DNA of 60,542 nucleotides from a virus (IMGVR_UViG_3300027721_000017), one strand, 5' to 3'. Shown: positions 56,440-58,833, numbered from the stretch's first letter. The notes: a model not told the origin generated them from the sequence alone. Made by a program: numbers and translations.

Positions 56440-56448
56440 TCGCCGCCT

Positions 56449-56472
56449 AGCCCCCGAAACGGGCTGTTTTTT
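56449..56472 (+). terminator. Rho-independent terminator (agccc-ccGAAAc-gggct + TTTTTT)
   Basis: Stem, GAAA-type loop and T6 seen in sequence. The T-run merges into the next promoter-like motif. Confidence 0.65.
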
Positions 56473-56492
56473 GGGGTATCAGACTTTGAGCC
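56467..56492 (+). promoter_or_regulatory. Promoter-like motif TTTTTTGGGGTATCAGACTTTGAGCC
   Basis: One of at least seven instances of TTTTTT-n-GGGTAYnAGAYTnTGARCC found 25-100 nt upstream of plus-strand starts. Confidence 0.5.
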
Positions 56493-56526
56493 ATAGATCT
56501 CTAACCCAGCTCAAAAGGAAAGAAAC

Positions 56527-56751
56527 ATGCCCCTCAAGAAAGAGACGGTCATTTTCGCGAAGGAATTCTTCATCGCCAGTTGCGCCGTACACCAGCGGGC
56601 CTGCCGGGTGGATGACCCTGAAAGCACCTTTCGGGCACTGGCGCGATTGAGCTTGGACGCCGCGGTCATCTTCGAGCAGGAGCTCAAAGAGTACACGCCG
56701 TTCCCCGAGCCAGAAACTTCGGATGAGCCGGAGGCGGCCCGTGCCCAATAA
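56527..56751 (+). CDS. Small acidic protein (74 aa)
   Basis: Promoter-like motif 45 nt upstream. Track ORF. Confidence 0.5.
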   Translation: MPLKKETVIFAKEFFIASCAVHQRACRVDDPESTFRALARLSLDAAVIFEQELKEYTPFPEPETSDEPEAARAQ

Positions 56752-57130
56752 GCCCGTCTACACGGCGATCTTTCTGGATGAGGGGTCCAAGGAGGCCTTG
56801 CTCAAGGCCTTTCCGCCCCTCCACCCCAAGGTGTTTGGGCACCACGTCACCCTGGTCTTCAAGCCCAACCCCGCCATGGTCCAGGCCTTCGACCCCTACC
56901 TCGAGAAAGAGGTCGAATTCGAGGTCGTTGGGGAGGCTTCCGACGCCCTCGGGCAGGCCGTCAAAGTCGCCCTTCCGGCCCCCTACCCGGACTTGAACCC
57001 GGAACAGCTGCACCACGTCACCATCTCTTGCGTGAGCAGCCCGGTCTACTCGAACGAGCTGCTCAAACGGGGGTATGGGAAGGCTCCCCAGATCAAGCTC
57101 CGGGGGGTCGTCCGCCACTTTACCAAGTAA
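56723..57130 (+). CDS. 2H-phosphoesterase superfamily protein (LigT / cyclic phosphodiesterase-like), 135 aa
   Basis: Two H-x-T/S-x motifs (HHVTLVF and HHVTISC) with the expected ~85-aa spacing. Confidence 0.5.
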   Translation: MSRRRPVPNKPVYTAIFLDEGSKEALLKAFPPLHPKVFGHHVTLVFKPNPAMVQAFDPYLEKEVEFEVVGEASDALGQAVKVALPAPYPDLNPEQLHHVTISCVSSPVYSNELLKRGYGKAPQIKLRGVVRHFTK

Positions 57131-57144
57131 CGCCGGTCCGGGGG

Positions 57145-57167
57145 CCCCCTAAAAGGGGGTCCCTGGA
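57145..57167 (+). other. Stem-loop ccccc-taaaa-ggggg followed by TCCCTGG (same repeat family), after gene 56723-57130
   Basis: Seen directly. Confidence 0.5.
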
Positions 57168-57180
57168 AGGGCCATAAAAG

Positions 57181-57210
57181 TGATCATTTTTTAGGGGTAT
57201 GAGTCTTTGA
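57181..57210 (+). promoter_or_regulatory. Promoter-like motif TGATCATTTTTTAGGGGTATGAGTCTTTGAACC
   Basis: As above. A TGATCA palindrome precedes the T-run. Confidence 0.5.
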
Positions 57211-57231
57211 ACCCTAACAAAGGAGTCCGCC

Positions 57232-57468
57232 ATGCTGAAGAACCCTGAAGTGATCGCTCTGAGGTCGAAGCTGCTTAAAGCCCTGAAAGACGACCCTCCC
57301 TTTACCGGTTTCTTGCCGGGGCTGTTTTTCACGATCTGGCTGGCCCGGCGCCTTGTTCCGGTGGAAACAGCTCTCATCCTGCGGATAGAGGAGGCGCTGG
57401 GGAACGAAGGTTTGAGCTTGTGGCTGATCGAGCTCGTGGACGAGAGCGGTGTCGCCGAGAAAAATTAA
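57232..57468 (+). CDS. Small hydrophobic/amphipathic protein (78 aa)
   Basis: AAAGGAG RBS. Promoter-like motif 29 nt upstream. Confidence 0.5.
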   Translation: MLKNPEVIALRSKLLKALKDDPPFTGFLPGLFFTIWLARRLVPVETALILRIEEALGNEGLSLWLIELVDESGVAEKN

Positions 57469-57475
57469 ACGCCCT

Positions 57476-57503
57476 CAGGGACCCTTCTTCGGAGGGGTCC
57501 CTG
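57476..57503 (+). other. 3'-end stem-loop cagggaccc(t)tc-TTCG-ga(g)gggtccctg with UUCG tetraloop; member of the GGGGGTCCCTG repeat family
   Basis: About 11-bp stem with one mismatch, seen directly after the stop of gene 57232-57468. Confidence 0.55.
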
Positions 57504-57519
57504 ATGAATTCGTAAAAAT

Positions 57520-57549
57520 GATCATTTTTACGGTATTAGACTATGAACC
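57520..57549 (+). promoter_or_regulatory. Promoter-like motif TGATCATTTTTACGGTATTAGACTATGAACC
   Basis: As above. Confidence 0.5.
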
Positions 57550-57561
57550 AGGATTCTGTCG

Positions 57562-57690
57562 ATGTCACAGGACAGGTCGCTGTACTGGTCCCTCTTCGTA
57601 GTCTACCGGTGCAAATACGGGAAGAGGGCGGGGATAGCTCGGCAGTTCCTCGATGAGGGCGATAACCCAAAGAGCCTCTTGGAGTCCTGA
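57562..57690 (+). CDS. Very small ORF (42 aa) downstream of a promoter-like motif
   Basis: ATG 57562. Below the track's size cutoff. Weak. Confidence 0.25.
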   Translation: MSQDRSLYWSLFVVYRCKYGKRAGIARQFLDEGDNPKSLLES

Positions 57691-57852
57691 ATAGGCCCCG
57701 CCGGGCCTTGAGTGTGTGACCGGCGAAGAGTTCAAGTAAGTCCTCCAGAGAGCCCCTGAACCTGGGGGTGTCGCGGCTAGAGGAAACTGCTTGATCTTGG
57801 GCATGGAGTGGTTGTCCTTAAGGTAGGGGCGGTAGACCCCGTAACGAAAAGT

Positions 57853-57880
57853 ACCCCCTCCGCCGGGGGTGCTTTTCTTT
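57853..57880 (+). terminator. Terminator-like hairpin ccccc-tccgcc-ggggg followed by TGCTTTTCTTTTG
   Basis: Seen directly. Confidence 0.5.
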
Positions 57881-57888
57881 TGCCTCCG

Positions 57889-57925
57889 ATGATCAAAACC
57901 CCCTCTTTTTTGGGTACAAGATCTT
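57889..57925 (+). promoter_or_regulatory. Promoter-like motif TGATCA...TTTTTTGGGTACAAGATCTTGAGG
   Basis: As above. Confidence 0.5.
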
Positions 57926-57957
57926 GAGGTTCAACTTCACTCAAGAGAGGGGAAAAC

Positions 57958-58833
57958 GTGTCGAAACCAAACCAGTATCCGGGGGAAACCGACGCAAAAC
58001 GTCTTGCTCGACTCGCCGTGTACCGGCGGGTAGAGGCGTTTCAGGCGCGGAACCTTCGGCAGGACAACGCTACTATCGTACTCGCAGGCCCTGAGGCCGG
58101 CGATCAAGGGTGTCTTCAGCATTTCCTCAAGACCCCAGCGGAACAGACGTACTTCGTGGACGTGAAGGAGAAGCAGGGGCTGACCCGAGCGAAGAAGCAG
58201 TTCCCCGGTGTCACGACGTACCTGGGGGACGTCAACGAGCTGCTCAAGGCCAAGCTGGAAGACCCCGCGGAAAAGGCAGCGCTTATCAACCTCGACTTCT
58301 GCGGGTATCTATCCAAGGAGCGAGAAGAGATCGTAGCGAATGCCGCCCTGTCCCTCGTCGACTGGGGGATGATCTTCTACACCTTCTTTCGGGGGCGCGA
58401 ATCCAAGGTTCTTCCCTTCTGGGACGACATCCTTCAGGCCCCCGCGAAGACCATGGACGGGAAACGGATGATCGGTACCGCCCAAGTCATGCAGAAGGCT
58501 CTGGGGCCCCGCTTCATCCTCGTCTTCTCCCTGCGGTACACCGGGGTTACTCCGGTAGGCCCAGGGAAGGTTCGGCTCGGGAGCATGGGCATCCTCGGAT
58601 TCCAGCGGGTCCCTGCCAGTGCACAGCAGAGCGCCAACTGGACCCGCATGCTCGCAGCGCCGTCACCGTACGGCGGGTACGTCCCGAGCGACAAGAAGTT
58701 GTTGCAGGCGAATTTGCGCGTTGAAGCTCTGGCCCTTCGGGACCGCGGCCTCAACTCGCACGAAGTAGGGGCTGTCTTGAACACTAGCCCTGGAACAGTA
58801 GCAGCGTGGTTTGCAAATCAGCACCGGTCGTAG
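57958..58833 (+). CDS. Hypothetical protein with C-terminal sigma-70 region-4-like HTH (LNSHEVGAVLNTSPGTVAAW); possible transcription factor
   Basis: GTG start after AGAGGGGAAAAC. Promoter-like motif upstream. Confidence 0.45.
   Translation: MSKPNQYPGETDAKRLARLAVYRRVEAFQARNLRQDNATIVLAGPEAGDQGCLQHFLKTPAEQTYFVDVKEKQGLTRAKKQFPGVTTYLGDVNELLKAKLEDPAEKAALINLDFCGYLSKEREEIVANAALSLVDWGMIFYTFFRGRESKVLPFWDDILQAPAKTMDGKRMIGTAQVMQKALGPRFILVFSLRYTGVTPVGPGKVRLGSMGILGFQRVPASAQQSANWTRMLAAPSPYGGYVPSDKKLLQANLRVEALALRDRGLNSHEVGAVLNTSPGTVAAWFANQHRS

Follow-up and report, generated by a model that had tools for sequence, protein, structure and literature searches.

In this study, we find that positions 56,440 to 58,833 of a 60,542-nucleotide (nt) stretch of the virus IMGVR_UViG_3300027721_000017 (hereafter the window, which is part of an uncultured phage genome of ~190 kb) probably hold an array of composite regulatory cassettes, in which a hairpin is followed by a lineage-specific bipartite promoter and the resulting units bound genes that are swapped between related phages. 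The conserved ~29-nt motif within each unit is best read, from its sequence, as a phage-specific promoter class. An earlier note on this DNA had described the region as a run of small genes with a shared promoter-like motif and 3' hairpins; our observations add to it a -35-like element, a variant consensus that extends across the phage family, and the position of the units as repeated boundaries of a gene-shuffling region.

The motif, TTTTTnGGGTAYnAG-N3-TTGARCC, is present in four co-oriented plus-strand copies between 56467 and 57933, with GGTAY cores starting at 56475, 57196, 57532, and 57913, and a repeat finder independently called one 29-nt family at 56467-56495, 57188-57216, 57524-57552, and 57905-57933 (identity 66-100%). 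All four copies are intergenic and lie 3' of a hairpin and 5' of a start codon with a Shine-Dalgarno sequence. The distance of 29-45 nt to the start given previously is approximate only, as we measured 52, 36, 30, and 45 nt between the first GGTAY base and the start codon for copies 1 to 4. When the degenerate pattern from the earlier note was searched with up to two mismatches, five sites were found compared to 0.5 expected, a comparison that is circular because the pattern was derived from those same sites. For a non-circular test, we trained a weight matrix on 18 sites, all from other genomes, and scored both strands of the window. The top six positions were 57532 (42.6 bits), 56475 (41.7), 57196 (29.8), 56021 (25.4), 57913 (21.9), and 26980 (15.2), which together span 15-43 bits compared to a maximum of 12.5 bits in shuffled sequence. 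The claim that the four units share a motif is therefore borne out by both the repeat family and the ranks under the external matrix. Its proposed extension to other genes is supported by the matrix for the gene at 27012 (site 26980) but only weakly for those at 8673 and 2397/2398, whose sites (8572 and 2317) score 4.6 and 3.4 bits, within noise, and share with the motif only the 8-mer core and the upstream AAA.

Placement in the genome points in the same direction as the scores. The bare 8-mer GGTAYNAG is not over-represented in the window (17 copies compared to 12.7 +/- 3.5 expected), and nine of these 17 copies are non-coding and at most 110 nt 5' of a co-oriented start, in a space that makes up 2.6% of the position-strand total (P ~1e-10). 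Full units are confined to 56-58 kb, with one more at 26980. In the divergent intergenic regions at 2317, 30623, and 56021, where plus-strand transcription must start locally, the motif is the sole conserved element 5' of the plus-strand gene. The copy at 56021 lies 7 nt before its ATG, which agrees with initiation 6-11 nt 3' of the -10-like element and suggests a leaderless or near-leaderless arrangement; the equivalent gap in relatives is 5-7 nt.

Comparison with distant relatives (L002, L003, L005, L008, and L009; protein identity 34-55%, GC content 53-56%) revealed a counterpart of the motif, GG[G/C/T]ATAAG[A/C]-N4-5-TGA, which lies 5' of many genes and is found before the homologue of gene E, the last gene of the region, at all five loci. 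In an unbiased k-mer test, GGGATAAG was the top over-represented gene-strand 8-mer in these relatives (23 copies compared to 0.93 expected), and all 37 matches to G[GA][GCT]ATAAG fall on the gene strand, with none on the other. Each lineage also has a second element upstream: A at -18/-17 from the 8-mer in 11 of 13 sites of the window lineage (P 1e-6) and A at -17 (cAA) in 25 of 29 distant sites (P 6e-12), the latter also carrying TG at +13/+14 in 26 of 29 (P 1e-11). Since the second element stands at a fixed distance in both lineages, the motif is bipartite: a 12-15-nt spacer separates its two elements, and a conserved start region follows. Such a layout is that of sigma-70-family promoters. 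An alignment of 27 sites from the window lineage yields the consensus c..AAa...g....tttTt.g GGTAT.AG ...TTGAGCC. The -35-like element is A-rich (TAAAAG, TTAAAG, or CGAAAG), the spacer is T-rich in the window lineage, with the T-run absent from the distant relatives, and the -10-like element reads GGGTAYnAG in the former compared to GGnATAAG in the latter, while the start region TG/TTGAGCC is conserved. Many promoter-like sites of the distant relatives (for example, L009:14185-14240 and L008:14360-14410) have a conserved TTTTTAGyCyTCAGAAAA block on their 5' side, which merges a terminator tail with the -35-like region and so indicates that the composite terminator-promoter layout is family-wide.

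The hairpins form the other half of each unit. All five hairpins that had been predicted were found: three are very strong (-35, -26.1, and -24.6 kcal/mol; z-scores of -4.4 to -5.5), a fourth is of moderate strength, and the remaining one is a weak stem that carries a T-run. A U-tract follows hairpins 1 and 5 (56448-56472 and 57846-57883) and is lacking at 57137, 57475, and 57693; hairpins of the latter kind may act as factor-dependent terminators, attenuators, or RNA-stabilizing 3' ends. Hairpin 5, with its A-tract and T-tract flanks, looks like a bidirectional intrinsic terminator. The T-run of hairpin 1 doubles as the T-rich spacer of unit 1, whose -35-like GAAAC (56456-56460) lies inside the hairpin loop. 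The hairpin-2 sequence family recurs after gene C in a diverged form, at 60499-60530, and after gene B in L007, L011, and L016, and hairpins 2 and 3 have the 3' arm GGGGTCCCTG in common. The hairpin-promoter unit of ~95 nt is itself a repeat with two sub-types, (a) a strong GC hairpin without a U-tract, then RTAAAA[G/C]TGATC[A/T]TTTTTAG and GGTAT[T/G]AG, and (b) a hairpin whose T-run directly abuts GGTATCAG. The features are collected in Table 1.

Table 1. Hairpins, promoter-like units, genes, and other sequence features in window coordinates (aa, amino acids; ORF, open reading frame; UTR, untranslated region; GC3, GC content at third codon positions; SAM, S-adenosylmethionine; HTH, helix-turn-helix)
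Feature	Start	End	Strand	Description
-10-like copy GGTATCAG	56021	56038	+	7 nt before ATG at 56036; kept in L011 and L016
Hairpin 1 and T-run	56448	56472	+	After 72-aa gene 56221-56439; fold -9 kcal/mol, z 0.4; terminator-like match
Motif copy 1 TTTTTTGGGGTATCAGACTTTGAGCCATA	56467	56495	+	-10-like GGGTATCAG at 56474-56482; start region TTGAGCC at 56486-56492
Candidate 5'-UTR stem, unit 1	56485	56515	+	TTTGAGC (56485-56491) / GCTCAAA (56509-56515); 3' arm adjoins Shine-Dalgarno AAGGAAAG; ATG at 56527
Cargo of unit 1	56527	57130	+	Genes A and B
Gene A	56527	56751	+	74 aa; no homologues in relatives
Gene B	56741	57130	+	129 aa; 2H-phosphoesterase-like, two HxT motifs; conserved in relatives
Hairpin 2	57137	57167	+	14-bp GC stem, no U-tract; -35 kcal/mol, z -4.4
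Promoter unit 2 (putative)	57174	57216	+	-35-like/near-palindrome ATAAAAGTGATCATTTTTT, then GGGGTATGAG and TCTTTGAACC
Gene C	57232	57468	+	78 aa; absent in L007; unrelated genes instead in L011, L016, and L017
Hairpin 3	57475	57504	+	13-bp GC stem (inverted repeat), no U-tract; -26.1 kcal/mol, z -5.5
Promoter unit 3 (putative)	57512	57552	+	Perfect 20-bp palindrome GTAAAAATGATCATTTTTAC at 57512-57531, then GGTATTAG at 57532-57539 and ACTATGAACC
Gene D	57562	57690	+	42 aa; GC3 0.79; absent in L007
Hairpin 4	57693	57708	+	GGCCCC/GGGGCC; moderate, -10.9 kcal/mol, z -2.1; no U-tract
ORF-poor stretch	57709	57845		No convincing plus-strand ORF, no Rfam match; part of 709 bp missing from L007
Hairpin 5	57846	57883	+	13-bp stem, A-tract and T-tract flanks; -24.6 kcal/mol, z -5.4
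Promoter unit 4 (putative)	57890	57933	+	TGATCAAAA (-35-like TCAAAA), T-run, GGGTACAAG at 57912-57920, ATCTTGAGG
UTR stem, unit 4	57922	57946	+	TCTTGAG (57922-57928) / CTCAAGA (57940-57946), then Shine-Dalgarno, then GTG at 57958
Gene E	57958	58833	+	291 aa; class I SAM-methyltransferase fold and C-terminal HTH; conserved across family
Motif copy outside cassette	26958	27014	+	GTAAAAG-N11-GGGTATAAG-CCCCTG, 32 nt before TTG start 27012
Hairpin-2-family copy	60499	60530	+	After gene 59637-60491; window ends before promoter expected next
CCTATACT copy	29423	29430	+	
CCTATACT copy	55335	55342	-	
CCTATACT copy	54650	54657	-	
CCTATACT copy	30605	30612	-	
CCTATACT copy	22993	23000	-	
CCTATACT copy	22332	22339	-	

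While the hairpin-promoter units are kept in closer relatives, the genes between them differ and are non-homologous. L007, whose gene E is 76% identical, runs directly from gene B and the hairpin after it into the unit-4 promoter-like sequence and gene E. The 709 bp between units 2 and 4, which hold genes C and D and the ORF-less stretch, are missing there, and the join lies at TGATCA; the unit-4 ortholog still sits 5' of the homologous gene. L011 (87% in gene B) shares this hairpin and promoter-like unit, after which comes an unrelated 65-aa membrane protein. L004 (63%) has a unit-2-like promoter motif before an AAA_33 kinase, as well as a unit-1-like motif and 5' UTR before an unrelated small ORF. 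In two ~190-kb relatives, the same region holds at least 10 full units (L016/L131) and seven (L017), mostly with unique cargo. Genes A, C, and D have no Pfam or PHROG matches and no homologues in relatives. The ~140 nt between hairpins 4 and 5 (57709-57845) could, judging from the sequence, be a decayed cassette or a small RNA; an antisense 79-aa ORF (57565-57804) overlaps gene D there. Gene E is the stable neighbor, and the promoter-like motif is found 5' of it in all relatives examined except L004, where the preceding gene abuts gene E. Its structure is predicted with high confidence (predicted local distance difference test score, pLDDT, of 91) to combine a class I SAM-methyltransferase fold with a three-helix HTH at the C terminus, and Pfam gives only a weak HTH_23 match; we had considered gene E as a sigma-like factor and rejected this because of the methyltransferase fold.

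Taken together, these observations suggest the following model. The GC-rich hairpin would end or stabilize the transcript of the preceding gene, and directly 3' of it a bipartite promoter (A-rich -35-like element, 12-15-nt spacer, GGGTAYnAG, and N3-TTGAGCC) would be recognized by RNA polymerase carrying a non-housekeeping sigma-70-family factor, with initiation at about the G or A of TTGAG. We propose a group-3 factor (SigB/SigF/sigma-28-like) that the phage either encodes or borrows from its host. In many cases, the short leader would open with a GAGCC...GGCUC stem that abuts the ribosome-binding site. Because each small gene has its own promoter-like and hairpin unit, we infer that each would be its own transcription unit. 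Being repeated and conserved, the ~95-nt units are proposed to act as recombination points, between which accessory genes would be inserted, deleted, and swapped to give a hyperplastic region.

To place the motif among known promoters, we compared it with several sigma classes. A sigma-70 consensus scan found no -35/-10 pair at any of the four units and no TTGACA, the -10-like hexamers (TATCAG, TATGAG, TATTAG, and TACAAG) end in G in 27 of 27 sites, and an extended TGn is out of register, as the distance from the G-run to TAY varies; an ordinary sigma-70 promoter was rejected given the negative scan and the G as the last hexamer base. A sigma-54 promoter (GG -24/GC -12, TGGCAC-N5-TTGCW) was rejected because the GG-to-TTG spacing is one nt too long and the motif has TGA, not TGC. 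TGARCC as a -35 of the extracytoplasmic function type was also rejected, since site 2 leaves no room for a -10 before the ribosome-binding site. SigB/SigF-type promoters read GTTTAA-N12-14-GGG[A/T]A[A/T], with three invariant G and an A at position 5 of the -10 and GNNTNN as a looser -35 (PMC8346170), Synechocystis SigF recognizes GGTAA at -12 (PMC2532724), and sigma-28/FliA promoters have TCTAAAG at -36..-30 and GCCGATAA at -15..-8 (PMC12784957). Eight of nine window sites carry GGGTAT or GGGTAC, exactly the SigB-type -10 (CGGTAT replaces it at site 3), and the 12-15-nt spacer is comparable. The -35-like TAAAG/CTAAAAG resembles the -35 of sigma-28 promoters, and the GGGATAA/GGCATAA of the distant relatives share their (G/C)ATAA core (GATAA). 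None of the three classes has a counterpart to the nAG after GGGTAY or to TTGAGCC. By its sequence, the cassette motif appears closest to group-3 promoters of the SigB/SigF/sigma-28 type, a resemblance and not a membership.

The window also contains a second motif, CCTATACT-N5-8-ATG/GTG (24 nt at 54657), with six sites compared to ~0.2 expected. It lies before the M15 endolysin gene, the structural operon, and several genes of unknown function, is also kept in L011, L016, L017, and L131, and resembles a leaderless promoter whose -10, TATACT, is canonical. The existence of this class argues that the cassette motif is a separate class for non-structural genes. The earlier note had suggested that the motif is a phage-specific early or middle promoter class. 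A phage-specific promoter class is the best reading, given its strand specificity, intergenic placement, fixed -35-like element, conservation in variant form before dozens of genes in relatives, and departure from sigma-70, but the timing is a tentative assignment made by elimination, from the different motif CCTATACT at the endolysin gene and structural operon.

Several points weigh against our model of hairpin-promoter cassettes, and they bear on the competing explanations. Pfam scans of ~70 ORFs (window, L016, L017, and L131) and a DxDGD scan, which covered the 60.5-kb window and ~35 kb of relatives (of a ~190-kb genome), turned up neither a sigma factor nor an RNA polymerase gene. The -35-like GTAAAA, CTTAAA, and CCGAAA match the SigB/SigF-type GTTTAA at no more than four of six positions, and the cassette spacing is 1-2 nt short for sigma-28. 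Three of the five hairpins lack a U-tract, which makes their terminator function uncertain. At the L007 junction the exact identity is TGATCA only, so ordinary homologous recombination between units is not proven. The motif could also be the ordinary promoter of the phage's host, a housekeeping consensus and not a phage-specific one. The -35-like element, 12-15-nt spacer, -10-like element, and start would suit such a sigma-70-family factor, as would the lack of a phage sigma factor among the ORFs scanned. We nevertheless consider this improbable: the leaderless class with its canonical TATACT, 5-8 nt before starts, looks more like the housekeeping one, the -10-like element has G where sigma-70-type factors need a highly conserved T at -7, and the consensus shift from GGGTAYnAG to GGnATAAG tracks phage phylogeny. 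Alternatively, the motif might serve a phage-encoded RNA polymerase, either T7-like single-subunit or non-canonical multisubunit. Promoters of T7-like polymerases are continuous from -17 to +6 with a conserved initially transcribed sequence, and the contiguous ~29-nt block (T-run, GGTATnAG, N3, TTGAGCC) resembles them; moreover, most of the ~190-kb genome lies outside the window. However, the window has no RNA_pol family match and no DxDGD catalytic motif in a long ORF, the T-run is gone in the distant relatives, and the extra conserved element ~30 nt 5' of the predicted start, at sigma-like spacing in both lineages, is unexpected for such a polymerase. We therefore judge this explanation to be equally improbable.

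Two further explanations concern what else the conserved sequence might do. The A-run and T-run of the cassettes also form palindrome halves, which could make them an operator instead of a -35 element and spacer. In the palindrome sub-type, CTAAAAnTGATCAnTTTTAG might serve as the operator of a dimeric phage regulator, or as a switch controlled by GATC methylation, that overlaps the promoter spacer and times cassette expression, which would add to the promoter model and not exclude it. Three of the four sites carry TGATCA (57181, 57519, and 57890), and site 1 has TGATCG 37 nt upstream; at site 3, TGATCA is the center of the perfect 20-bp palindrome GTAAAAATGATCATTTTTAC. Near-perfect palindromes are found at site 2 and in L017 (9781, 10492, and 11248) and L016 (5348, 6174, and 8223), the outermost pair swaps G..C to C..G among copies, GATC lies 12-15 nt 5' of GGTAT in 10 of 27 units, and the adjoining gene encodes the methyltransferase-fold protein with an HTH. 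On the other hand, TGATCA is replaced by TGATCT at site 2 of the 99%-identical strain L010 and in two L016 copies, the palindrome is missing from half of the units, the distance from TGATCA to the -10-like element ranges from 12 to 37 nt (sites 1 and 4), and neither TGATCA (10 compared to 9-17 expected) nor GATC is enriched across the window; the symmetry is possibly a by-product of an A-rich -35 element next to a T-rich spacer. Such an operator or switch thus seems unlikely, if somewhat less so than either alternative polymerase assignment, and the palindrome that had been said often to precede the motif is neither a general nor a strictly conserved feature. TGATCA as a -35 element or fixed operator was rejected, as its spacer would be 9-12 nt, its position varies, it is not enriched, and it is mutated in L010. 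Finally, the conserved sequence might act at the RNA level, as a processing site, 5'-stabilizer, or translational operator in longer transcripts. TTGAGCC is often the 5' arm of a 7-8-bp stem whose 3' arm (GGCTCAA, GGCTCGA, or GGCTCAG, that is, GGCTCRR) adjoins the Shine-Dalgarno sequence, A-to-G changes in the 3' arm keep G.U pairs, and two copies of differing sequence still form a stem there. The entire unit 1 5' UTR is kept in L004 before an unrelated ORF, and its stem arrangement is also seen in the L004:1617, L016, and L017 copies with G.U-compatible changes, which is statistically not decisive. If transcription starts at TTG|AG, the RNA would open with the GAGCC...GGCUC stem and no unpaired 5' nucleotides, and a 5'-terminal stem of this kind is expected to protect against 5'-end-dependent decay. 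However, the stems are not significant compared to shuffles (fold z-scores), with the arm-pairing test only suggestive, and this also counts against the leader stem in our own model; a 5'-UTR hairpin as the cause of conservation was rejected on these scores. Neither GGTAY nor the upstream AAA, which make up the best-conserved part, falls within a predicted RNA structure, copies of the motif sit in divergent intergenic regions where no co-directional gene lies upstream, and there is no Rfam family match (tmRNA and transfer RNAs [tRNAs] only in the whole window, and sub-threshold matches only in the cassette, E >= 0.009). Together, these findings make an RNA-level function very improbable, and we retain the bipartite promoter as the preferred explanation.

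The wider genome offers few landmarks. Blastn of 54000-60542 and tblastn of gene E found no match in 50,697 phage records, and the SNF2 helicase had two distant matches only. Homologues of gene E and gene B lie on contigs of 171-204 kb, and an IMG/VR motif scan identified two relatives, IMGVR_UViG_3300036766_000644 (188.6 kb) and IMGVR_UViG_3300037493_005727 (190 kb), whose conserved genes show 70-89% nucleotide identity. No further relatives were added by a gene E scan of viral contigs, a gene E alignment scan of metagenomes, or a genome-contig scan, and a loose motif scan of viral contigs gave ~116 matches, mostly single and presumably due to chance, that added nothing. Pfam and PHROG recognize few window genes (helicases, an ATP-dependent DNA ligase, a vault-like protein, and an M15 peptidase). 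A large minus-strand gene block looks structural and includes a 2,097-aa ORF (45610-51903, minus strand) with no Pfam or PHROG match. The vault-like protein (13002-15686, 894 aa) has Major Vault Protein repeat and shoulder domains (Pfam E 1e-22), which is unusual for a phage. The window also encodes a transfer-messenger RNA (tmRNA; Rfam 115 bits) and nine tRNAs in the regions 10605-10975, 11146-12668, and 32940-33688, and the tRNA at 33616-33688 has the anticodon UCA, which would read UGA, as an opal suppressor or selenocysteine-like tRNA. CGATCG is absent window-wide (0 compared to 19.5 expected from base composition), as is ACTAGT, and GATC is not avoided (258 copies); the absence of CGATCG suggests avoidance of a specific restriction site.

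An end-repair-like set of genes is scattered through the phage and the cassettes of its relatives (56741-57130, 23002-23499, 16733-17890, L004:1047-1538, and L016:7832-8299 on the minus strand). It comprises a 2H phosphoesterase, whose distant homologues carry a tRNA-ligase CPD domain, a PNKP-type HAD phosphatase, an ATP-dependent ligase, an AAA_33 kinase, and a cyclic-phosphate-processing receiver domain. Such an RNA/DNA end-repair-like set may counter anticodon-nuclease-type defenses.

If the units are active promoters, they would chart one temporal class of genes in a phage family that has no cultured representative and hardly any annotated genes, and they would supply a consensus for locating the family's other early or accessory genes and a concrete test of which sigma factor or polymerase the phage uses. 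The cargo between units includes the 2H phosphoesterase, a polynucleotide-kinase-like ATPase, and the cyclic-phosphate receiver domain, all plausible counter-defense candidates.

Promoter classes that depart from the host consensus are familiar in phages: the -10-only classes of T4 late promoters (TATAAATA) and of the middle/late promoters of Thermus phage P23-45 (extended -10) define temporal classes. The cassette motif is likewise a class off the host -35/-10 consensus, but its sequence differs, and it additionally has a conserved upstream element and start region. A looser parallel is offered by the start-associated sequences (SAS) of Cluster K mycobacteriophages; the 13-bp SAS (GGGATAGGAGCCC) includes the ribosome-binding site and sits only a few nt away from the initiation codon (Pope et al. 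2011, PMC3203893). Both are asymmetric, strand-specific short repeats found only 5' of non-structural genes, both are kept across sub-lineages before unrelated genes, some copies of both have an upstream inverted repeat, and the GGGATAAGAACCC of the distant relatives resembles the SAS sequence. Unlike SAS, the motif here lies 15-101 nt before the start, with a separate Shine-Dalgarno sequence after it, and has a -35-like partner element.

The closest known analog is the promoter-early stem-loop (PeSL) cassette of T4-type phages. PeSLs are composite repeats of a stem-loop and a promoter that populate hyperplastic regions and sit 5' of orphan genes, with indels and replacements bounded by the units (Arbiol et al. 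2010, PMC2839356; Comeau et al. 2014, PMC4122927). Both systems consist of short stem-loop and promoter-like units with AT-rich sequence 5' of the promoter core, repeated many times in a hyperplastic region with small genes of unknown function downstream, and both bound insertions, deletions, and replacements among related phages. A stable stem-loop is likewise found here, as a hairpin lies 5' of each unit; however, it always precedes the promoter-like motif and does not overlap it, and the sigma-70 early promoter of PeSLs (-35 TTGACA, -10 TATAAT) is not present. The window phage is also unrelated to T4-type phages, with no nucleotide or gene E protein match in the phage records, and whereas promoter activity, terminator activity, and mini-circles are experimental for PeSLs, the cassettes here are known from sequence alone. 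Mobile hairpin-promoter cassettes have so far been described only in T4-type phages with sigma-70 promoters. It is a speculative and, in our view, unlikely extension that they are general in large phages, that the architecture evolved independently in this ~190-kb soil/sediment family with a group-3-like sigma promoter and a GATC palindrome as a timing or methylation switch, and that the cassettes carry RNA-repair and accessory genes between phages. The turnover of cargo between conserved units carries the PeSL notion of regulatory repeats as drivers of gene shuffling to phages outside the T4 type and to promoters other than sigma-70.

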